Below, in pieces: positions 45,516 to 64,000 of a DNA stretch of 64,000 nucleotides (positions are counted from its first letter, which is position 1; each line of letters starts with the position of its first letter). Source of the DNA: Pseudogymnoascus verrucosus (lineage: Eukaryota). The stretch lies in the NCBI GenBank assembly GCA_001662655.1, contig KV460212.1. The stretch is one strand, 5' to 3'. The position numbers and the translations under genes were made by a program. The notes under the pieces are model-generated. The model saw nothing but the letters and a program-made list of their open reading frames with translations. It did no database searches and was not told the DNA's origin.

Positions 45516-45810
45516 ATTAGGCTATGTAGGTTTGGGGTGTTGTGGAGGTTATGAGGAAGGGGTGAGCTATGTTTGTTTACATATTGGAAAAAGGCCCTGT
45601 CTATGAATATCTACGATATATGATTGAATATACAATTACTTCATGTATTATAGTGGACTACATTTATGCAGACTTCATGTGTCTTCACGTGATCCAACAG
45701 CGAGTTTGTGTTTCATGCTGGAGCCTGGAGTTGTTGGTTGGTTGTTGGTTGCGGGTAAGAGCATCTCAGCTTTATACTGCCAGTCTGCTAAATAATCTCA
45801 TCAGTTAGCA

Positions 45811-46653
45811 ATGTCCAAGTCCACCGCAAACCAGCCCGAGCCCTTCATCGTCCTCCCAACATCCACACACACACACACCCTCATCCTCCTCCACGGCCTC
45901 GGCAACAACGGCCAAAAGTTCGGCACCAAGCTCCTCTCAACAGGCATCTCCTCCAAAGGACTTACATTCACCTCCGCCTTCCCCGGCACAAAATTCATCT
46001 TCCCCAACGCCCGCAAACGGCGCTCGAGCGCCTTCCGCCGCGCAGTGATAAACCAATGGTTCGATATCGCTTCTGTAGCGGACCCGTCACATCGCAGGGA
46101 TACGCAGGTGCAGGGCTTGGTGGAGTCGGCGGAGCATGTACGGTCTATTATTGCGGAGGAGCTGGAGACGATTCCAAGGGGGAATATTGTGCTGGGGGGG
46201 TTGAGTCAGGGGTGTGCGATGTCGATGGCTGCTCTTCTGAGTCTGGAGTTTCCGTTAGGTGGGTATTTTGGGATGAGTGGGTGGTTGCCGTTTAGGGAGG
46301 ATATTGAGGATGTTGTGGCGCCGGTTAAGGAGGAAGATAATCCTTTCGCTGATGATGAGGCAGATGGGGAGGTGATAGAGCCGCCGCTTATGGCGGTCGG
46401 TTTGGTGAGGGATATCTTGTCGCTGGATACTGCGACGCCGAGTAAAGAGAGGACGAGCTTGACAACGCCGGTTCTCTTGTGCCATGGGGAAGATGATGAG
46501 AAGGTGAAGTGCAAGCTAGGAGAGGAGGCTGTCCAGTGCCTCTCCTCACTTGGTATGCAGGTGACTTGGAAATGCTATGCGGGGTTGGGGCATTGGTATA
46601 AGATTCCAGATGAGATTGACGATATATTTGAATTTCTTGAAGCAATACTATAA
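45811..46653 (+). CDS. Phospholipase/carboxylesterase (acyl-protein thioesterase-like alpha/beta hydrolase)
   Basis: THTLILLHGLG, QWFDI, GGLSQG nucleophile, HGEDDEKV, GLGHWY. Confidence 0.88.
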   Translation: MSKSTANQPEPFIVLPTSTHTHTLILLHGLGNNGQKFGTKLLSTGISSKGLTFTSAFPGTKFIFPNARKRRSSAFRRAVINQWFDIASVADPSHRRDTQVQGLVESAEHVRSIIAEELETIPRGNIVLGGLSQGCAMSMAALLSLEFPLGGYFGMSGWLPFREDIEDVVAPVKEEDNPFADDEADGEVIEPPLMAVGLVRDILSLDTATPSKERTSLTTPVLLCHGEDDEKVKCKLGEEAVQCLSSLGMQVTWKCYAGLGHWYKIPDEIDDIFEFLEAIL

Positions 46654-46950: not shown

Positions 46951-48254
46951 ATGGACGAAGCCCAAATGTTAGGGAATTGATTAAACCCCGTATAATCACC
47001 TACTAACATTTGTCGAAAATCTCTAGTAATCGCGGCTCTGACTCCAGCGCGTCTTTCGACTCCCTCGAATTCCCCGAACTTGTTAAGCCAAATGAACGCA
47101 TCGTCAAATTGAACCAAGAAGTTCTTGAAATCCTCCAGGCTGCGCTTAAGCTTAATCCTGAGATGAACCTACTTGCAATCTTCCCAGAGGACTATAGCCA
47201 GCGCAGACAGGGCAAGCTTGCTGCATCTACAGCAAGCGGCGCAGAGTACAAAATAAAAAAGTTGCCACCTCCTCCACCTATCCGACCCCAACCCCCTTTA
47301 GGTTCTCGGGACTTCTGTGCCGATGCTATCGCATTGTCGAAAACTGCGATAGTTATACACCCGCTGTCTGACGAAGCGATAGCATTTTTGTCTAATTTTC
47401 TAGAACCACTTGAGTCCTCCCAAGTACTACTAGACTCTTCAGATAGCCTTATGAAGGCTATAAAGCGGATGCTCGCCCAGCCGGATAAATTGTGGGAAGA
47501 TCCTATAAGAGGCGTTGTGCTTAAATGCAATGACGATCTTCCTGTCAAAGTCGTTCGAGGCTACAATGATCACACAGAATACACATCGATGCAATACCTA
47601 GCTAAACATGCACCTGATATACCCGCCCCAAAGCCACATGGGTTTATAAAGTTAGGCAGGATCCATGTCATTTTTATGACTCTTATACCGTCTATAACTT
47701 TAGAGAAGGTGTGGGACAACCTTACAGACAGAAATAAGACATCGATCCAACACGAGCTAAACGAAATATTTCTCAAGCTCCGCAAACTGAAAAAGAACAG
47801 CGCACAACGACTCGGTGGTTTGGATGGGGAGGGCGTGAAGAATGATTTCATGTTTGGACATCGAAGTAGCGAGGTTATGACGACAGCCGCTGAGTTCGAA
47901 GACTTTCAATTCTCAGCATGTCCCCGAGCAAGCAAAGCATGGGTCACCTTCCTCCGCAGCTTCCTGCCTGTCCAATCCGAGGATTGCGTCTTCACTCATG
48001 GCGACGTGTGGATGGCTAATATCATGGTTAAGCTCGACGACAGCAGCAGCAATTACACTCTATCCGGCTTGATTGACTGGGAAAACAGCGGCTTCTACCC
48101 AGAAAGTCAGGAATCGATTTGGATGCTATCTGGGCTAACGAGATACACCGAAACTGACTGGTATAAACATGTACCCCCATGTGTCTCCCCGAAAAGATAT
48201 ACGGTCCATTGGCTTGTCCACCGGCTTTGGAGCCACACAGTAGACAGCACATAA
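46951..48254 (+). CDS. Aminoglycoside-phosphotransferase/kinase-like protein (2 exons; intron approx. 46968-47026)
   Basis: ATG at 46951, GT donor, TACTAAC branch at 47001, TAG acceptor. Motifs PVKVV, EYTSMQYL, IPAPKP, VFTHGDVWMANIMV, GLIDWENSGFYP. Confidence 0.8.
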
Positions 48255-48502: not shown

Positions 48503-50965
48503 CTATGTGGCAGACCTACTATTGCAGAACTGACAACGAGCATGCGCAAAATGCCAGTCTCGTACTTTCTTCGCCTCACTCCTTCGGGCTGCATCCTGCT
48601 CGCCTAATGGCAACAGCCCAATCTTCTCTTCTGTATTCTTCGACCGACGATGAAGCTCATTATGCCAATTACTCTCATGCTGCTCCCTTACATCAACAGC
48701 TGGCTTCCGCTTAGTTAGAAAGTTTCGGAAAGAGAAACCTTCAGAAATGTAGATCTTGAACTCGAATTGCTGCTGACGTTTCCCGAATTGTCGACTCCAT
48801 TTCGTAGGGGGGATGTCGAGCAGCTCTGGCCACTTGTTGAAGGCATCTCTATCATCGAGGAATTTCTGGCCGAAGACTACCTCGCATGGCAAGTGTTTGA
48901 CGACATGAAAAATCGTGTATAAATCATCATCCCCGTCTCTATGTGATGGGTCTGCACTCCCGTGACCATCAGGTTCGAGCGGCTCGTCGGTTGCAGGTGC
49001 GTGTGGTGATTGTTCAGGAAGATCCGACTCTGGCTCACGCCAATCCAAGGTAAGATTCGAGACGTAGACCTGCCCAAGAGTCTCTATCTTTTTGTTATTA
49101 CCAAGCAATATCGTGGTCCTAGCCTCTATGCGCGCATCAATCCGAAACCCTTCCCTCGCTGCGCATTCTAGGGACATGAGGTTAAGATCTGATCCAGTGT
49201 CGGCTACAGCCTCTAGTTTTCGCCCATCAATTGTGCATCGTATCCTGCTTCGGGGGGATCCAATCCACAGCAGTGACGGGATGTTGCTTATCTCAGCCGG
49301 GCAGTTCTCAAGCAGGTGTCTATACTTGGTGAGAATCTCGGCCTCCTTTAAGAACTTCATTCCCATAACCAGAGGGACCGGGCAGTCCTCTAGGACATAA
49401 AACCGACGTTTCTTCTGCCAAAGAGGGCTGCCTGGGAGCCCAACGGTTTCTAACACCCGTCCGATTGACCACACAATATCTCCATTTCCAACTTCGAATC
49501 GCTTTATGTCTTTGGTTTTTCGGCGAATACGGAATCCGTGCTCAACAGCGCAAGCTTTCGAAATGATGTTCTTTTCCGATCCAGAATCGGGACAGGTGAG
49601 ATGATCTTGGCCATTGATTCGGACTCGGAGAACCTTTCGTCTGTTCTCACGTGGTTTTGCATTTAGTGAGAATATACAGGGGTTCTCTCGATGTCGAAGG
49701 CCAACCGCCCCCTTGTGCTTGCTACCCCTTGGGCGTCCTTGACCTGTTAGACCTGCATATATCTCTTTTCCTTCTGTAACGAGTAGCCCCTGAGAAATAG
49801 GCATAATATCAAGCTGCGAGATACGTCTAGGCGGCTCTATCGGTTTACCTCGCTCGGTCCTAATAGAACTCTCACTATACGCCTTAGGGCTTCCGATCAG
49901 AGCGTGCTGGTGCTTGCTTAGAACGTCAGAGGCAAGCTTAGCGTGCTCAGCCGGAATGTCGGTTTGGTCGCTGCTAGCTTCACGGATCTTGTTTTTATTC
50001 CTGTTAAACAGGTTAGAGATGCCGCTATAGAAGCCGGCGCGAGGGCCGTAGCTGATCGCGACATCGATTTTGCAGCTGTCATCGTCACGGGTACTGTCTC
50101 GGTAGTTGCTATTGTGACTAGTATCGTCTCTGTAGTTGCTTGGCAAGTTGGAAGAGTCGCAGAGGTAGCTGTGGAGAGGGATATGGTTGTGCGTGACTTC
50201 GACGTGCGGCAGCCGCTGCCGCCACGGAAGACCGGCGGCGACCTTGAGGGGCTCGCCCGCAATATCAGCTTGGTGACGTGCGGAGCTAGGGAGATCATCT
50301 TCGTTGTTGATCAAGGGGTCGTGCAAGCTAGAGGAGTTATGGAGGTTGTCTTCGTGATTGGTTACCGAGTCGAAAGAGTCGGTGTAATGGCTAGCGGGAT
50401 GGGCCGATGGTAATTCGAGGTGTATCTCGCCATCGTCTTGGTCGTAAGGGGAGGAGAGGGATTCGTTGGGCTCAGGGACGAGGTCTTGGATTCGTGAGCT
50501 AACCACGGGGCCCGGCGGGTTGGAGGAAGCGAAGACAGACTCGCTAGGCGCAAGCTTGCCATTCACATGGTCGACAGGATTCGTGCTTTTGACCTTCCTG
50601 TACAATATAATGTCAGTCTTCGACCTCGTCCATTATCTGAATTAACATCCGAGGTAGCAAGCGCCAACTTAATAGCTCTTGCTAATGCCAGGGGGAGCTA
50701 TGGAAGGAGATATCAAATATACATACGCCGCTCTATAGCATACGTCCTCGTAGGCTTCCCTGTATCTCAAGAGTTTATCACTACTCGTAGGAAACCACCG
50801 GCTGTGGTTCTCTAAACAATGCTTCCATAGACTCTCTCGCGACGCATAATCCCCACAGTCGGGGTCATCAAAACAGTGTATGCAACTAAATGTGCCTTTG
50901 TGTCTCCGATTAACATAATCCAAGTGCTCTTTGAGGATGTGAGACTGTGTGTCCGCCTCACTCAT
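48503..50965 (-). CDS. Protein with N-terminal C2H2-like finger and two retropepsin-like aspartic protease domains (exons approx. 50965-50727, 50597-48503)
   Basis: Exon 1 has CIHC...HCLENH. Exon 2 has VRINGQDHLTCPDSGSEKNIIS...LVMGMKFL and CTIDGRKLEAVADTGSDLNLMS...VVFGQKFL. Confidence 0.75.
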
Positions 50966-51282
50966 CTTTTATAGCATGCATAGGCGTAAACAGGTCGTGG
51001 GACGGAAACATTAAGTTTGTAGAAACACAACAAAATGACAAGATCGATAGTCGAAAAGAGTTTTGACGTAACATACGGCCAATAGTATTGGACTCGAGTT
51101 GTCGGGCACAAGTATAGCTTTATGTTAAGGCGCAGCCGTCTTGGTTGGGCTGCAAGATGTGGCGTATCTAGCAAGGCTGCATGAGGTAGCACAGATGAAC
51201 TTCCATTTTCTCCATCACCATCTTCAAAGTCTCCCACCTCTCTCTTGCGGACCCAAACCCCGTTTCCGATGTAAAGCAGCAA

Positions 51283-52431
51283 ATGAATCAAGGCTATGAG
51301 CTGCCGCCCGCGAAACCCCTAAATGGCTTCCCTCGAGTAGCCCACAAACTCGCCTCGGACCCCGATAGAACGACTACGATATTCCGGCGCTTCGATCGGC
51401 TGTCAGCGAGGAATCTAATACTCCTCGAGGCGGAAGTGGCAGAGCTAGAGGCGCGGCAAGATCGATTCGATGAGGAGGATAAAATATCAACGTCGGAAGA
51501 AGTGCGGAGCTGTCATACTGAGTGGAGTACGTTTGAGCGTCTGGCAACGGAGAGAGATGCGGATGGGAACCCTACGAATCTGGGACAGGCTACGAAACTC
51601 GAACTTGCGTTGAAAATCAGGTCGAAAATAAAAGAGTATCATAAGCGCTCGTTCAATATCTAGGCGCAGATTCAAAGTTAACTCCGAGGAAATAGATGAA
51701 GCGCTCGCTGTCCACCAGACGCTGTTGAATTCTAAGCCGCCAGCTGCGACGACTATAAAGGGCATGAGAGAATGGTTCTTAGACACGCATAATGGGAAAC
51801 AGTACGGTGCGCCGCAGCTTTGGGGGGCTAGTGAGAAGAGATTCGATGATCCGTATGATCTCGTCGCTCTGCGCGTGCCAGCGGATCAAGACCGGCTCTC
51901 CGAGTTTATCTTAAACTATTTCGGCGGCTTCTTTCCGGTTCGTCCCTTCCTTTCGTAACACTCCTTCCACTTCTCCTACCTTCTAACGTTCCTTCCCCCC
52001 TTTCCCCTTCCCCTAACAACCCCCGACCCATCGAAAACCACAACAGATATACAGAACCAAAACTAACACTAACACCTACCCCCTAGGCAACATCAACAGA
52101 CCCCCACTCCTCCTACATCCGCGAATCCACCCTCGCCAAAACCATCGCCATCATCTCCTCCATCCTCTCCGCCATCCTCCTCTTCGGCTCCATCGCCTCC
52201 CTCTACTTCGTGCACAACGGCCTCGCCCTCCTCGGCATGTTGGGGGGCTGGACAGTCCTCTTCGCCGTCTGCGTCGGCTGGTTGACGAATGCGCGAAGGG
52301 ACCAGGTCTTTGCGGCGACGGCGGCGTATTGTGCCGTGCTTGTGGTTTTCGTTAGTGGGACGCTTGGAGGAGCGGCGGGAGGACAGGTGGTGGTGGGGGA
52401 GGGGGGGTGGAATTGTACGAGGGGAGGGTAG
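51283..52431 (+). CDS. DUF6594-like protein with C-terminal TM helices (3 exons; first donor reads AT, possibly a pseudogene)
   Basis: GFPRVAHKLASDPD...IFRRFDRLSARNLILLEAEVAELEARQ, KIKEY.EAL, DLVAL....DRLS, TM block ending FAATAAYCAVLVVFVS. Confidence 0.72.
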
Positions 52432-57803: not shown

Positions 57804-58952
57804 ATGGCATCCCAAGGCAAGATCCAAAACGTCGGCGTCATTGGCTATGGGTACGCCTTCCACTCCCCCTCATCTCACAATAACTCCCCATACTAACAAC
57901 ACCCCTCCAGCATGTCCGCAAAGGTCTTCCACATCCCCCTCATCCAAACCACCCCCTCCTTCCGCCTCGCCGCCATCGTGCAACGCAAGCCCACCGCCGA
58001 CAACTCCGCCCCCGCCGACCACCCAACCGTAAAGCACCACACCACAACCGACACCCTCCTCTCCGACCCAACCATCGACATCATCATCGTCACCACCCCC
58101 CCCGACTCGCACTTCTCCCTCTGCACCGCTGCCCTCAAGGCCGGAAAGCACGTTTTCGTCGAGAAGCCCTTCGTGCCCACCTCCGCCGAGGCCACTGCGC
58201 TCATCGAGACTGCGCGAACGGCTGGGAAGCTGATCTGCGTGTACCAAAACCGCCGCTGGGATAGCGATTTCCTGACCTTCAGGAAACTGCAGAAGGATGG
58301 CACCCTGGGACGCATCGTGGAGTTCGAGACGCACTTTGATCGTTATAAGGCTGTTAAGCCGGAGACGTGGAAGGGACAGCTGGAGATGGATAATGGTGGG
58401 GGTGTGATCTATGATCTCGGTACCCATTTACTGGACCAAGCGTACGTAGCATTCGGACTTCCCGTCGACGTCACGGGGATCTTTTCGAACCAGCGCGGCG
58501 AGGGCGAGGGCGCGGAGCCAGACGCATTCACAGTGCTGTTGAGATACAAGGACGGCCTCCTCGTGACTGCTAAGGCGGGGATAATGTCCATCGACACCGC
58601 GCAGCTGCGCTACTGGGTCCGCGGCACAGAGGGGTCGTATAAGAAGCACCACCTCGATTGTCAGGAGGACCAGCTGAAGGCGGGCTTGAAGCCGGGGGAT
58701 AAGGGGTTCGCGGTGGAGGATAAGGAGGCGTCGGGGACGTTGGTGAGGATGGTGGGGGGGAAGCCGGTGAAGGAGGTGTTCGAGAATATCGAGCCGGAGA
58801 CTTATGGCGCGCTTTATAGGGGGTTTGCGGAGGCGGTGGAGAAGGGGGATGAGGGGCTTGTGCCGGTTAAGGCGGTGGAGTCGAGGGATGTTTTGAGGAT
58901 TATTGAGGCGGCGAGGGAGAGTGCTAAGACTGGGAAGGCTGTTAAGCTGTAA
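57804..58952 (+). CDS. Gfo/Idh/MocA NAD(P)-dependent oxidoreductase (2 exons)
   Basis: VGVIGYG|MSAKVFHIP, GKHVFVEKP, YQNRRWDSDF, YDLGTHLLDQ. Confidence 0.9.
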
Positions 58953-59211
58953 AGCGTCCCTGAGAAATAGGGTTAGTTAGTGGTATATATTCTCAGGTTT
59001 TGCAATTTATACACTTTCAAAAAGCCGCGGCAGAGCCGTCAGTCAGCAAGCACCCGGAATATCACTTGCAAACAGCAATTTTTAAAAACCATCGCATTAC
59101 TAACTATCATCTCACCCCCCATAAAGTCATCGCAAACTCATCGCTATCTGCAGCTCACTCGCCGGCTCATGCGTCCTACCACCCAGCAGCGCCCGGCCCC
59201 CCTGCGGCGAT

Positions 59212-60314
59212 TTAGCCACCCTTCTCCTTATGTCTCGAAGAGTGATTCCCCACAAACTCCCGACACCACGCAGTGCACACAGCCATCACCTGCGTGACCG
59301 GCTCCACAAGTTCCTCATCCTCATCCTCATCCTCGTCCAGATCGCCCTGCATCTCGGCCTCGAGAGCAGAGCGGCCTCCCTTTTCCTGGTGGCGGGAGGA
59401 GTGATTACCGACGAACTCCTGGGACCAGGACTTACGGGCTGCCATGACCTCGGTGGCAGTGATGGCGTCACTGGTGTCGATTGGGGCGGCGAGCTCGACG
59501 GGTGGGTTTGGGTCTTTGAGACTCGCTCCTTGGGTCTCGCGATCGAGAGAGTAGCGGCCGCCTTTTTCTTTGTGGCGGGAGGAGTGGTTGCCGACGAATG
59601 GTTGACACCATGAGTTGCAGGCGGACATGGTGCGGGTGGTTGCTGTGGGGGTGTTAGTTTCTTAGTTCGCTGGGAGGAGGGAAGGGGGGGGGAGGGGAGA
59701 GGTAAGGGGTTAGGGGCTGACTTACCATCTCCTGGCTGAACAGTCTTCTCCATGAATACCCAAGAAGCCTCGACGCTGTTGCCGCCCTCGGTGGGCTCAT
59801 CCTTGTGGAGCGTGATATTAGCGCGTCCAGCAGTGAATTCCACGCCCTTCATCTTGCCGTCTCCAGGCTGGCGAACGAAGATGCCAAGAACATCGATGAG
59901 ACCCGCCTCATCGAGAACAATGCGCAGCTCCGCCATGAAAGCTGCATACTGGGGCGAGGACAGATCAACCTCGTTAGCATCATTTCCCTGAGTCCATTCG
60001 CACACCGCGACACCAGTGGGGACAAAGCGGTAGACGAGAGGCTTGATAGCAGAGCCAACGATGATGTCGAGTTCGATGGGAACGGCGACGGCGCCGATGC
60101 CGACGAGGCGCTCGTCGTCGCCGATGGTGAAGTGGGTGTGGAGCATTTGGACGCCGAGGTTGTGGTGGACTTTGTGGCGGAGGAAGAGGGAGGCGAGGGT
60201 GATGTCGATGGTCTTGGAGGCGTTTTTGGCTTTGAAAGTTTCTTTGGCGGTGAAGAATTCGGGGAGGGTGTTGTAGTGGGTGGAGGAGTAGGGGAGGATG
60301 GTGGAGGAAGCCAT
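59212..60314 (-). CDS. Hypothetical protein: His-motif N-terminal domain plus three C-terminal 24-aa repeats (exons 60314-59726, 59642-59212)
   Basis: G|GTAAG donor, CTAAC branch and CAG acceptor join ...VQPGD|ATTRTMSACNSWC in frame. TATA-like element upstream at about 60453. Confidence 0.82.
59215..59628 (-). repeat. Three 72-nt coding repeats (59557-59628, 59374-59445, 59215-59286)
   Basis: MSACNSWCQPFVGNHSSRHKEKGG / MAARKSWSQEFVGNHSSRHQEKGG / MAVCTAWCREFVGNHSSRHKEKGG. Confidence 0.95.
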
Positions 60315-61308
60315 ATTGGCGGTTTGGGGGGTTGTTTTGGAGAAGTTCAAGAAGAAGTTCGTGTTGGGTTGTGTGGTGGAAGATGGTGAAAGAGAATAAG
60401 AGTGTGTGTCGATGGTGGAAGAAGGAGAGGGGAGGAAGGTAAAGTGGCTTATTTTATAGACGCCGCTCCTCCTGCGTGTGGAATCAGGGTAGAACCAGAA
60501 GCTGTTGGACATGAGAATCAGTAGAATCAGTTCGCCTACGGGTTATATTGAATCTCTCTAGCAATCACCACTTTATGAATGCCATGGGGTTAATGCCGCC
60601 GATTTACGTAGGCCTTGAAGTATTCAAGGAATGTGACTGGATCTAGTCTACGATGAGATCTATGATAAGTTCCGGTTCTGTATGGCCATATATAGCAACG
60701 CCATGGTCATAGACCGGAGCAACAAAGAAAAACAGGAAAACCTTCATGTTGGTCTATTAAACGTTTGATTGTCCGTTCCGAGAATCAATTCTATGCTGAC
60801 GTTGTATTAGAGTTGGATCTACTATAAGTGCAAGGGATAAACATCTTTAAATGCGGTTAGTAGGCAGAGTCTCTGTTGCTGAAAATATGCCAACGTCCTC
60901 AGTCCACAATCAAGTTCCCAAAGTACGGTCCAGTCTGTGGCCAGTGTCTGTCAAAATAAGGAGCAGTTTCTTTGTCAAACAGACGCCTTGGAAAGTTCAA
61001 GTGGCATGGCGCCCAGAACAGATCTGGTTGGTAGCTCTCACAAGAACTGCCTGATCAATTGAGACTCAATTTTATAACTATAAACAAAACATATGTAAAA
61101 TATACTAATAACACTCAAGCTCCCACCAGCTACACATGCTAACCACAAGGGTGCCATCAGCTTTATGAGTACATACAGTACAACCAGGATATCGTGTACA
61201 AAGTCCAAGGACCGCTTCCAAAATAAACCAAAAATCATCGACCATCATTATTCCTTCATGTGCCCATTTTTAAAACAAGTAACCCTCCCCCACCTCCATA
61301 CACTCTTT

Positions 61309-64000
61309 TTACAGCTCATCCTTCATGTTCGTCTCGGTGGACGAAACTGCACTGCTGACGCTGCTCGCGAAATCCTCAACGCTCTCAGTAGCCGACGCCG
61401 CAGCTTCGGAGGCGGCAGAGATGACAGATTCAAGACGCTGGCTTGCCGAGGCGACAGAGTCGGAATAGGCGGCTTGGACGGAGGAGAACATCTTCTCGTG
61501 GATGGGCTTTGGCGTCCCCTGAATCATTCCCGAGACAACAGCGGATGCGCGGCTGAGGCGCTGCTCAGCCTGGCTCGTTAGAGCGTCGTATGCGGCGCTA
61601 GCCTGGGCGATGACAGATTCTACTGGCGCCGGGGTGCCCTTAACGGCAGAACTGGCACTGCTTATCGTTAGTAATAATCTATAGTGGAACCTGGGATTCA
61701 CTTACGCAGAAGAGGCTTGGGCGTATTTCTCGGATACAACGCTAGCCATGTTTTCGGCAGAGCCTTTCTCCTTTCCGTGCATGGCGGCAGACGCTGCGGC
61801 TAGAACGCTCGAGTACTGCTCAGCAGCCACGCTAGTTGCGCTTTCGAAGTTTCCCTGGGTGGACTGCTGCAACAATGCCTCGCTCATGGCCTTTGTAACA
61901 TCCGCGAGACGCTCGCCGGCCTCACCAGCCATGCTTTGGATTTTCTCAGAGTAGGTATCCTGCTCATCGGATACACTCGACGCGTTCGGGGCCGCGTTCT
62001 TGACAACACTGGTCGCTGATGAGATAACGGATGACAAGGTCTCAAGAACTTCCTCGGCGGAGGAAGATACGGTCTCGAGAACCTCTTCCGCGGACGAAGA
62101 TGCCTTCTCCAGAAGGCTGCTGGCGCTCTCGCTGACAATGGAGGTCGCCTTCTCTACCGATCCTTGCGAAGTCCCAATGATTGCGCTCGACGCCTGGTCC
62201 AGAATACTGCTTGCGCTCTCGCTGACAACCGAGCTCAGGCTCTCCACGGTTCCTTGCGAGGTTCCGATGACTGCGCTCGATGCCTTGTCTGCCAGGCTAC
62301 TGGCAGATGCCTGGGCAACTGACACGACACTTTCAACGGAAGCCTGGGCCGCCGACACAAAGCTTTCAGCAGATCCCTTTGACGAGCCACCAACACTATC
62401 AGAAACTGAGGATGCGGCACCGACAACGCTATCGGAAACCGAAGATGCGGCGCTGGCGACACTTTCACTGACTTCTGAGGCATATGACTTGACGTTATCA
62501 GCCACAGACGATGCGCTCGCAGCTATCGAAGATCCTGCGTCCACAATGGTGGAGCTAGCGGCCTCAAGGGGGGAATCCGATGAGGTTTCGGCAGAGCCAA
62601 CAATGGCTTCGCTTGCCTCATGGACCCTCTCGACGACTTTTTGTGCGGCTGCCGCTGCCGCTGGGGGTAAAACATGGGTGCTAAAATCATCTGACGCGTC
62701 GCCCATAGCCAGCTTCCATCTGCCAGTTTCCTTTAGTCGTGAAAGTTCTGTGGCAGAATCTTCAGCAATGGCCATAGCCCTGCTTTCGATGTCTTCCGAT
62801 GCAGCCCGGGCAGCCTCCAAGCCTGGGTGACCAGTGACTACCTCCTCCACATCTTGTCGCCACTCGTCAAACTTGTTCTTCAGAGCGTGATACTTAGCCC
62901 AGTCTTTGTGTGTGACTCCATCAGTCCAAGCCCAGCGCATACCTATCTCTTGGAGTCCGAGGTCGCGAATGTGATCGATGATTTGGAAAGTATCCTCAGA
63001 CGCCTTGGATATCAGGTTGGTGGTCTCCTGGTCGAACGAATGACGCCACTCTCGGACTGCTTGGGCCTTGTCGCGAATTGCCAGCCCAGCCTTGCGAGTG
63101 GCACCGTTGAGGTGTTCTTCTTCACCATGCAATCTGACAATCGCCATGATGGCCATCTTGAAGGACTGTATTTGCGACTTGACGGTTTCTTCGAGTTGCA
63201 TCAAATGAGCCTCTCCCACTCCCTGGGCTTGGGTATTTATGGCTCGGTCGGTAATTTCTGTAATTCTTGCCTCCAGCTCATCCGATCCTTGATCTGCTGC
63301 CTTTGCAAATTTCTCTTGCCACGTCCTTAGGTCTTCCTCGACAACCTTTTGGGCATTGGCTCGCTGCTCCTCCTCCGTAAGAGGAGTGGGAGAGGCTTCC
63401 TCCTGCGTTGTAGTCGTAGTAGAAGTAGAAGTCTCGGATGACGTGCTGGAAACGACGACCGACTCAGTAATAGATGATTCGGTGGAGGCGGTGATTGAAG
63501 CAGTCGAAGTAGTTGTATCTACCTCATCAACGATAGATTGCAGCTTCTTTCCATCGCGATATCTGCCGAGACGCTCGCCAATCCGGATAAGTTGTGGCTC
63601 AACGTTCTCGCCGTACAAAATCCTCGCCTTTGGCCAGATGGTGCGATCGAGGAAAGCCACTCCGGATGTCCATGCCCACTGCGCGTAAGGAATACCTGTA
63701 TTAACGGTGAAAGTTTTGCCGATTTCGTATGCCTGTTGGCCGTATGGCTCAACGGCTGCATAAGCAGGTAAGATAGAGGCGTAGTACGTCTGCAATGCGT
63801 TCTCCTTTGCGAACTTCGCATATGGGACAGCAACATCAGCCGCCTTCTGAACATACGGTGCTAAGGTCTTATCATATTGCTCTTGGGCGAGCTTGTTAAG
63901 CTTGGCGACTTGCGGTTGGACTTGTCTCTCCCATTGCTCCTTTCCAATCGCCTGCGCTTGAGCTACGCGGGGTGCACCGTATTTCTTTCCATAGAAGGCA
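61309..64000 (-). CDS. She10/Osw7-like secretory-pathway protein with Ser/Ala-rich repeats and C-terminal KDEL; 5' end outside window
   Basis: ILYGENVEPQL.RIGERL, DLGLQEIGMRWAWTDGVTHKDWAKYH, ASSA.IGTSQG repeats, intron approx. 61657-61705, ends MKDEL*. Confidence 0.7.

Follow-up and report, generated by a model that had tools for sequence, protein, structure and literature searches.

The subject of this work is a gene of the fungus Pseudogymnoascus verrucosus located within a 64,000-nucleotide stretch of contig KV460212.1, which is called the window throughout. The gene lies on the minus strand at positions 59212-60314, consists of two exons and one intron of 83 nucleotides (nt), and encodes a product of 339 amino acids (aa), in which a globular-looking N-terminal domain is followed by three tandem Cys/His-rich tail modules. 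The spliced translation is 100% identical to P0003, the hypothetical protein VE01_02895 of P. verrucosus (339 aa), and the latter name is used here for the product. Exon 1 (60314-59726) starts at Met1, stops after the first base of codon 197, and encodes an internally duplicated alpha/beta domain of about 195 aa, as established from its translation and its match to P0003. The intron (59725-59643) opens with GTAAGT, contains a CTAAC branch site, closes with a CAG acceptor, and parts the domain from the tail. Exon 2 (59642-59212) encodes residues 197-339 (143 residues), comprising the three modules and two spacers, and ends with the TAA stop codon (59214-59212) located directly after module 3.

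The splice at 59725-59643 is predicted from its GT..AG signals and from the identity of the spliced product with P0003; read without splicing, the frame of exon 1 continues into an unrelated Pro-rich sequence. Two public DNA assemblies could be aligned to the gene region, and both were represented by contigs of relatives in which the intron is present. An initial annotation of this locus, made by a model from the DNA letters alone, had described a domain of roughly 195 aa fused to three repeated units, the last of which ended exactly at the stop codon. The parts, their order, and the position of the stop are borne out by the two exons and by P0003. The fusion is indeed a single protein, but its two portions are joined only through the intron, which was absent from that annotation. 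No paralogue of the gene was found in the window by tblastn. The N-terminus of VE01_02895 is polar and has no signal peptide, by inspection only, and the product appears to be cytosolic.

Module 1 (59557-59640, residues 198-225) contains the predicted docking strand TTRTMSAC, the pattern C-x3-C-x6-H-x3-H, and KEKGG, and corresponds to the single tail found in most of the family. It is followed by spacer 1 (59446-59556, residues 226-262), with a conserved RYSLDRETQG block and a variable Pro/Ala/acidic stretch, and by module 2 (59374-59445, residues 263-286, MAARKSWSQEFVGNHSSRHQEKGG), in which Arg and Ser stand in place of the two Cys. Spacer 2 (59287-59373, residues 287-315) is acidic, carries an RSALEAEMQG block, and includes the leading strand of module 3, VEPVTQV; module 3 itself (59215-59286, residues 316-339, MAVCTAWCREFVGNHSSRHKEKGG) ends at the stop codon. 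All of these features lie on the minus strand. The two blocks at the spacer starts confirm that the spacers are related to each other, as had been noted initially, and all three units close with FVGNHSSRH[KQ]EKGG. The motif M-x-x-C-x-x-W-C, which had been assigned to every unit, holds for units 1 and 3 but not for unit 2, which reads MAARKSWSQEF and has no Cys, so that the full ligand set is present in only two of the three units.

The repetition greatly exceeds chance: one 5-mer is present three times in the protein, while in none of 5000 shuffles did any 5-mer occur at least three times. At the DNA level, the units are 60-70% identical, and Tandem Repeats Finder reported no DNA repeat for them. 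When unit pairs were compared over 28 codons, 19 of 28 amino acids were identical, versus only 50-60 of 84 nucleotides. The nonsynonymous divergence (dN) was 0.18-0.25, and the synonymous divergence (dS) was 1.29 for units 1 and 2 and saturated in both pairs that include unit 3. A 14-aa block, FVGNHSSRHKEKGG, is identical between units 1 and 3 despite differences at 13 of 42 bases. Since synonymous sites are saturated while protein blocks stay identical, the three units are old duplicates, each held by purifying selection. Unit 2 may nevertheless be a decaying copy: signs of decay occur in this unit both in VE01_02895 and in its closest relative, the orthologue P0004 (loss of Cys, GG changed to EG, RY changed to RS). 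In P0004, the second Cys alone is lost and GG is changed to EG.

Ten Pseudogymnoascus orthologues contain 25 units, with one to four units per protein. One unit occurs in a single, degenerate orthologue (P0014), two units in four, three in four, and four units in one (P0168, 434 aa). Nearly every position of T-x-V-M-A-A-C-N-S-W-C-Q-E-F-V-G-N-H-S-S-R-H-K-E-K-G-G-R-Y-A-L-E-x-E-T-Q-G is conserved over the 25 units, both Cys are kept in 22 of them, and the unit-to-unit distance varies from 44 to 80 residues. KGG stands at the C-terminal end in all nine of the nine proteins of this genus with at least two units. P0014, a protein of 337 aa from Pseudogymnoascus sp. VKM F-4518, has Asn in place of the first His of the H-x-H motif, its single tail unit lacks the Trp, the last His and GG, and it shows no relationship over its N-terminal 170 residues; a decaying paralogue or a faulty gene model may lie behind it. 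Additionally, comparison of one public DNA assembly with positions 59150-60450 of the window gave two related contigs, one covering the whole stretch and the other more diverged, with 274 tail bases replaced by 94 other bases, which suggests a copy with fewer units.

No relative of the N-terminal domain was found among described families. Neither exon product matched a Pfam family at E values up to 1, and no Pfam family was common to the 145 family members scanned. Sequence searches of the PDB returned nothing with VE01_02895 alone and a best E value of 0.66 with the family profile. Alignments of the homologues show a family signature, LLHxHF ... ExLV ... PYEF ... GLxxxLGL ... ExTxGRANI ... 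WxF. The LLHxHF motif, conserved in alignments A2, A4 and A5, corresponds in VE01_02895 to L58-H59-T60-H61-F62 (60129-60143, minus strand). The codon of Glu106 (59997-59999, minus strand) belongs to strand beta5 (residues 101-109), where the PYEF of the family is represented by CEW, and that of Glu159 (59838-59840, minus strand) lies in the motif E-x-T-x-GRANI. H61, E106 and E159 are invariant, also in alignment A4, which takes in the array-bearing relatives described below, and H59 is present in at least 90% of alignment rows. This His-x-His/Glu/Glu set constitutes a putative metal centre.

The duplication within the domain was detected with hhalign, which aligned the profile of residues ~33-100 with that of residues ~124-190 (probability 94%, E 1.5e-7, 66 columns). 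The two halves pair E68 with E159, its pseudo-symmetric equivalent, and W185-x-F187 with a strand of half 1 that resembles WxF. On this basis, beta5 of half 1, the strand that bears E106, is equivalent to the first tail strand in half 2. The AlphaFold2 model of P0003 places a tail strand at residues 199-209, after the strand 181-191, with a mean predicted local distance difference test score (pLDDT) of 84 for residues 201-210; in the same model, pLDDT is mostly 93-98 over residues ~11-150 and 77-93 over residues 151-200. The model of P0015, a single-tail relative (mean pLDDT 86.6, predicted template modelling score 0.84), has the tail strand at residues 200-208, followed by two short strands at a pLDDT of about 65. 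The leading tail strand is thus modelled as the last beta-strand of the domain fold.

Searches with these models pointed to a fold without close counterparts, although they barely covered the residues of the tail itself. Foldseek gave no match to the PDB at E <= 0.001 with either the P0003 or the P0015 model. Among 48,161 chains, VIA-align reached a best Z of 3.0 with P0015 (root-mean-square deviation 2.9 over 58 residues), and with P0003 it matched only the low-confidence C-terminal helix (Z up to 3.5). The ESM Atlas search recovered solely unnamed clusters of the family itself, with template modelling (TM) scores of 0.77-0.85, the next best TM being at most 0.28. Two known folds with an H-x-H motif were considered. 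The JAMM/MPN+ metalloproteases combine an MPN fold with the motif E ... H-x-H-x7-S-x2-D. Weak Foldseek rows for P0003 (E 0.6-1.3) came from entries of the proteasome, the COP9 signalosome and the 43S pre-initiation complex, in which the matching chains, not named by the output, are presumably MPN-domain subunits; no such rows were obtained for P0015, the residues after H-x-H do not fit, and this candidate was not kept. A cupin (H-x-H ... E) was rejected on account of its wrong spacing and the lack of a fold match.

A length-blind HMMER search of 1.84 billion representatives recovered 307 clusters at E <= 0.001, most of them about 180-250 aa long. All named members are hypothetical proteins from scattered non-model fungi, with the reservation that the libraries name few proteins: Pseudogymnoascus, Endocarpon, Glutinoglossum, Diaporthe and Sarea among Ascomycota, and Bondarzewia, Piloderma and Tilletia among Basidiomycota. 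No orthologue from a model fungus was found among the named matches. Family members diverge quickly (25-45% identity), which, together with the scattered non-model hosts, suits an accessory function. Relatives of about 450-3260 aa were visible solely through the length-blind search. Alignment A4 revealed no longer homologue among proteins of 3262-5000 aa, the sole range that it covered, and a metagenome scan with P0091, a protein of 1863 aa, gave no relative. Two members depart from the usual layout. P0102 (Tilletia horrida KAK0567927.1, 399 aa), from a basidiomycete, carries two complete N-domains in tandem and a single C-x3-C...H...H tail, and in P0064 (650 aa) the domain is C-terminal, behind a protein kinase domain (Pfam Pkinase, E 4e-12). 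Literature searches turned up neither an account of this family nor a fungal fused precursor of the Cys/His kind, and both the family and its fold appear to be undescribed.

Tails were counted in 148 non-Pseudogymnoascus representatives among the matches listed. A GRxN-type core motif is present in 107 of these 148, and 41 of the 107 have exactly one tail of the form C-x(2-4)-C-x(3-14)-H-x(2-5)-H after the domain, with the consensus C-x3-C-x6-H-x3-H. In many of the remaining 66, the Cys/His tail is looser or the sequence breaks off abruptly. Some of these breaks coincide with the intron: the models of P0007 and P0008 run into sequence equivalent to the VE01_02895 intron, and a group of models stops right after ...KPGQV, where the full-length P0092 goes on into a Cys/His tail. 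Across P0007, P0008, P0005, P0013 and P0172-P0176, the models stop within intron-equivalent sequence, translate the intron in frame, or end after ...KPGQV. We infer that, in many database entries of the family, the gene model breaks off at the intron ahead of the tail, and members that seem to lack a tail may be artefacts of gene modelling.

Against this background of single tails, tandem tail arrays were detected by counts of repeated 5-mers in 7 of the 148 listed non-Pseudogymnoascus representatives. P0136 (463 aa) has about 15-17 units around HGICAAK, P0152 from Diaporthe australafricana (KAL1878147.1, 399 aa) about 9-11 units around RHSLCVKN, and P0074 from Sarea resinae (KAI9838542.1, 323 aa) seven units, RRCSGHPAPLDGVEAA; smaller arrays occur in P0105 and P0072 (426 and 367 aa). 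In P0029 (918 aa), units of 45-47 residues are bounded by (L/I/M)RGG, and each has an acidic ...EPVxKLAAGYC-x7-H segment. The longest array is that of P0091 (1863 aa), with about 31 units that are 24-89 residues in length and, in nearly every case, end in (M/L)RGG. Its units belong to at least eight types, e.g., QTCTIVSDGHSFSLPRRP, GACHPKVNDDH..., GKCIVPINFPNGH... and QKCKVDVDCGASL. Each amplified unit retains a segment resembling a strand, a Cys and, at a distance of 2-12 residues from it, a His or a second Cys. Because ...EPVEKLAAGYC of P0029 resembles ...VEPVTQVMAVC of VE01_02895, the KGG of the latter is probably the counterpart of the RGG in P0029.

In a FastTree phylogeny of 153 N-domains, from which 15 near-duplicate cluster members had been removed beforehand, arrays are found at no fewer than four places. 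The first is a clade of 15 rows (support 95) that contains the Pseudogymnoascus rows, P0029, P0027 and the single-tailed P0015. P0091 alone forms the second and the group of P0136, P0152 and P0074 (support 99) the third, and P0105 and P0072 lie within a clade of 25 rows as the fourth. The minimum number of changes between single and multiple tails on this tree is nine, a figure inflated by truncated models. The sequences indicate that the tail was amplified independently in at least four lineages, differently each time.

These observations bear on one explanation of the tail, in which it is an ordinary structural zinc knuckle on a domain of unrelated function and the extra copies are neutral tandem duplications. 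Most relatives have a single tail, its first strand is part of the modelled fold, and unit 2 of VE01_02895 and P0004 shows signs of decay. In contrast, units 1 and 3 have kept 14 identical residues while their synonymous sites became saturated, the pair of Cys persists in most units of the ten orthologues, and arrays as long as 7 to about 31 units have arisen in no fewer than four lineages, a persistence not expected of neutral duplicates. We consider this explanation improbable. The initial annotation had proposed to examine whether homologues show core-like variation and had set one fixed structural C..C..H..H tail against its own interpretation. Copy number and unit sequences do vary, but the single fixed tail, C-x3-C-x(5-9)-H-x3-H, is the commonest state (41 of the 107 listed with the core motif), with its strand forming part of the modelled fold.

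The arrays also bear on metal handling without covalent chemistry, which is a close rival of the reading favoured below. The Cys/His modules would then be flexible arms that capture Zn (perhaps Cu), dock, and pass or share the ion with the His/His/Glu/Glu site, the whole acting as a cytosolic buffer, chaperone or sensor, and amplification would raise its capacity or avidity. Cys and His are all that the otherwise unrelated arrays have in common, and dense CxxH/HxxC pairs recur every 14-20 residues in P0136, P0152, P0074 and P0105. P0091 and P0029, however, offer only about one Cys and one His per unit of 37-47 aa, while their non-ligand residues and (M/L)RGG are strongly conserved, beyond the needs of ligand spacing. 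The consensus C-x3-C-x6-H-x3-H is a classical four-ligand set and the domain, too, has classical ligand residues at its invariant positions, but in VE01_02895 purifying selection acts on nearly all 28-40 residues of each unit, not on the ligands alone, and unit 2 has kept its remainder without either Cys. The lack of an enzyme signature and of tailoring genes among the neighbouring open reading frames (ORFs) agrees with metal handling, whereas the occurrence of named matches in non-model fungi only, few proteins being named, is odd for core metal homeostasis. A precedent for a His-triad domain with a zinc-binding tail is found in Pra1 (PMC11741385). The tandem metal fingers that the initial annotation offered as an alternative are about as likely as its precursor, with the full ligand set in two of the three units.

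The reading that we tentatively favour is that of an enzyme-substrate fusion, in which the metal-dependent domain would take up the tail modules one after another and act on each of them, in the manner of an enzyme fused to the precursor of a peptide that is made by the ribosome and modified after translation (RiPP). Each module of 28-40 aa comprises a predicted docking strand (T-x-V-M-A-x-C), a Cys/His knuckle (C-x3-C-x6-H-x3-H), KEKGG and RYALExExQG. The domain would bind the modules singly, each through beta-strand addition along the edge of the second domain half, and docking would bring the Cys and His of the module beside the His/Glu centre. There, through presumed metal binding and catalysis, the domain could oxidize, cross-link or similarly modify these residues, and the modified units might later be excised near GG to give a released product.

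Several observations led us to this proposal. An arrangement in which several types of unit are set between conserved delimiters is that of a multi-core precursor, and the eight or more unit types that P0091 holds between its (M/L)RGG delimiters support the cut at GG that had been guessed in the initial annotation. Selection acts on whole units while the spacers vary in length, and every extra unit keeps the segment modelled as the last beta-strand. The H/H/E/E set is retained in array-bearing relatives, arrays arose repeatedly (at least four places on the tree), the ligand density in P0091 and P0029 is low, and the named matches stem solely from scattered non-model fungi. Docking was also modelled directly. 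The tail-less domain (residues 1-196) and unit 3 (residues 300-339) gave a score of 0.38, compared with 0.08 for the best of three controls, with runs agreeing in at least 84% of contacts and a partner pLDDT of at least 51. Of 78 solved complexes, 51 attain the docking mark, as do 2 of 108 mismatched pairs; with a score of 0.60 or under, it is attained by only 5 of those 78 complexes and by all four passing mismatches (of 180).

A number of points weigh against an enzyme-substrate fusion. The docking runs made no use of alignments and lend weak support to the docking of the distal unit 3 to the tail-less domain. Pfam, PDB sequence and fold searches gave no enzyme signature. The Pseudogymnoascus units are conserved as strongly as the domain and are not hypervariable like many cores, and the conserved block runs through the supposed GG cut site into RYALExETQG. 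Borosins and BURP precursors have free cores, whereas the leading tail strand here is modelled as an integral part of the fold. The single C..C..H..H tail is probably the ancestral as well as the commonest state of the family, and, taken alone, it looks like a structural zinc site. Cys and His are the sole constant across all arrays, which a role as metal ligands explains equally well. No transporter, methyltransferase or DUF3328/UstYa gene was found among the Pfam-named neighbouring ORFs, and the sole protease-like one encodes a retroviral-type aspartyl protease about 9 kb away.

The same docking result can be read in another way, in which spare docking strands enter the domains of other molecules and build metal-dependent chains or networks with a structural or storage role. 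The tail strand completes the fold, one domain accompanies up to about 31 units, and the score of unit 3 with the tail-less domain (0.38 vs 0.08), weak as it is, would suit such a strand exchange. In the full-length model, however, the domain's own first unit fills the site, several unit types in one protein would be unnecessary, and no precedent for such a scaffold was found. We regard it as highly improbable.

If the enzyme-substrate fusion holds, it would represent a new enzyme class with 307 representative clusters and tails ranging from one knuckle to about 31 units, and the signature LLHxHF ... PYEF ... ExTxGRANI ... WxF combined with Cys/His units would serve as a handle for genome mining. 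Fungal ribosomal peptides are known in few classes, mostly discovered by chance. A wider proposal, which we think unlikely, is that the family forms a new Dikarya-wide class of autocatalytic peptide-forming proteins, in which the metal centre would modify or cross-link Cys and His in modules docked as the last beta-strand of the domain, cytosolic proteases would cut after (K/R)GG much as in ubiquitin processing, and up to about 30 different small Cys/His peptides could be released per gene. If metal handling proves right instead, the family would be a new type of intracellular metal-handling protein with a capacity tuned by tail amplification. Under either reading, this is an unannotated domain family that deserves a Pfam entry and a structure.

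The surroundings of the gene contain several further ORFs. An intact 346-aa Gfo/Idh/MocA-family NAD-binding oxidoreductase (57912-58952, plus strand; Pfam E 1.5e-28) adjoins the 3' end of the gene. On the other side, a long Ser/Ala/Glu-rich ORF (61309-63999, minus strand) leaves the window and has weak apolipoprotein-like repeat matches below the Pfam cut-off; it is abutted at 61701/61702 by an ORF of 130 aa, and the two may be exons of one gene. The aspartyl protease domains mentioned above (gag-asp_proteas, E 3e-11) belong to a 709-aa frame at 48503-50632 (minus strand), which could be a Ddi1-like gene or a retroelement remnant. ORFs for a phospholipase/carboxylesterase, an APH/EcKL-like phosphotransferase and a DUF6594 protein are found among 45796-46653, 47007-48254 and 51199-51663, all on the plus strand, and none of them resembles a peptide-tailoring gene by Pfam. 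The initial statement that no tailoring genes are adjacent agrees with the Pfam scans of the neighbouring ORFs.

VE01_02895 shares its general layout with several known systems. The BURP domain contains four Cys-His motifs. In the fused burpitide precursors of plants, which carry a BURP-domain peptide cyclase (see also PMC12186524), a presumably metal-dependent domain with His residues and tandem units in varying number likewise share one chain. Repeat copy number varies between species there as it does here (1-4 in Pseudogymnoascus, 7 to about 31 elsewhere), an analogy of layout only. Unlike burpitides, VE01_02895 has no BURP domain by Pfam, and its domain shows H-x-H plus two Glu rather than repeated CH motifs; this domain is N-terminal to the units, the protein lacks a signal peptide, and the strand of its first unit lies within the fold. 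Borosins of the OphMA type are fusions of an N-methyltransferase with a C-terminal core. They resemble VE01_02895 in being cytosolic, without a signal peptide, and in having the acting domain at the N-terminus and the substrate peptide at the C-terminus, whereas VE01_02895 has no methyltransferase domain dependent on S-adenosylmethionine (Pfam) and its units are tandem and Cys/His-rich. The parallels with borosins and BURP peptides drawn in the initial annotation thus stand as analogies of layout, with neither domain present.

A similarity to polyubiquitin-type precursors is seen in the unit ends, which are (M/L/I)RGG in P0091 and P0029 and KEKGG in VE01_02895, a protein that itself ends in GG. 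Polyubiquitin-type precursors are cut after LRGG. The tail units, in contrast, are not ubiquitin folds, and their cleavage is presumed; a literature search on fungal LRGG-type precursors of this kind returned nothing relevant. The classical C2H2 zinc finger was rejected as a counterpart of the units: their spacing is C-x3-C-x6-H-x3-H, not C-x2-4-C-x12-H-x3-5-H, there is no zf-C2H2 match, and unit 2 has no Cys.

Kex2-processed repeat proteins, including the dikaritins of the UstA type, also consist of tandem short units with conserved delimiters and a varying unit number (see also PMC7329392). VE01_02895 differs from them in the lack of a signal peptide (by inspection) and of KR sites, in its (K/R)GG delimiters, and in the folded domain placed in front. 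No DUF3328/UstYa gene was found among the scanned neighbouring ORFs, although an ORF scan can miss intron-rich genes. The Pra1/Aspf2 proteins provide a parallel of another kind, in which the metal site of a globular domain is built on His and the C-terminus forms a flexible, metal-binding Cys/His tail; in the fungal zincophore Pra1, this CHTHXXGXXHC tail has been proposed to forage zinc for the His triad (PMC11741385). Pra1, however, is secreted and glycosylated, carries HRXXH and belongs to another family, whereas VE01_02895 has H-x-H, no Pfam match and a seemingly cytosolic location, and its tail units are tandem, each with a docking strand. Under either reading, what is new as a concept would be a variant of fused peptide precursors or of metal proteins composed of a domain and a tail.

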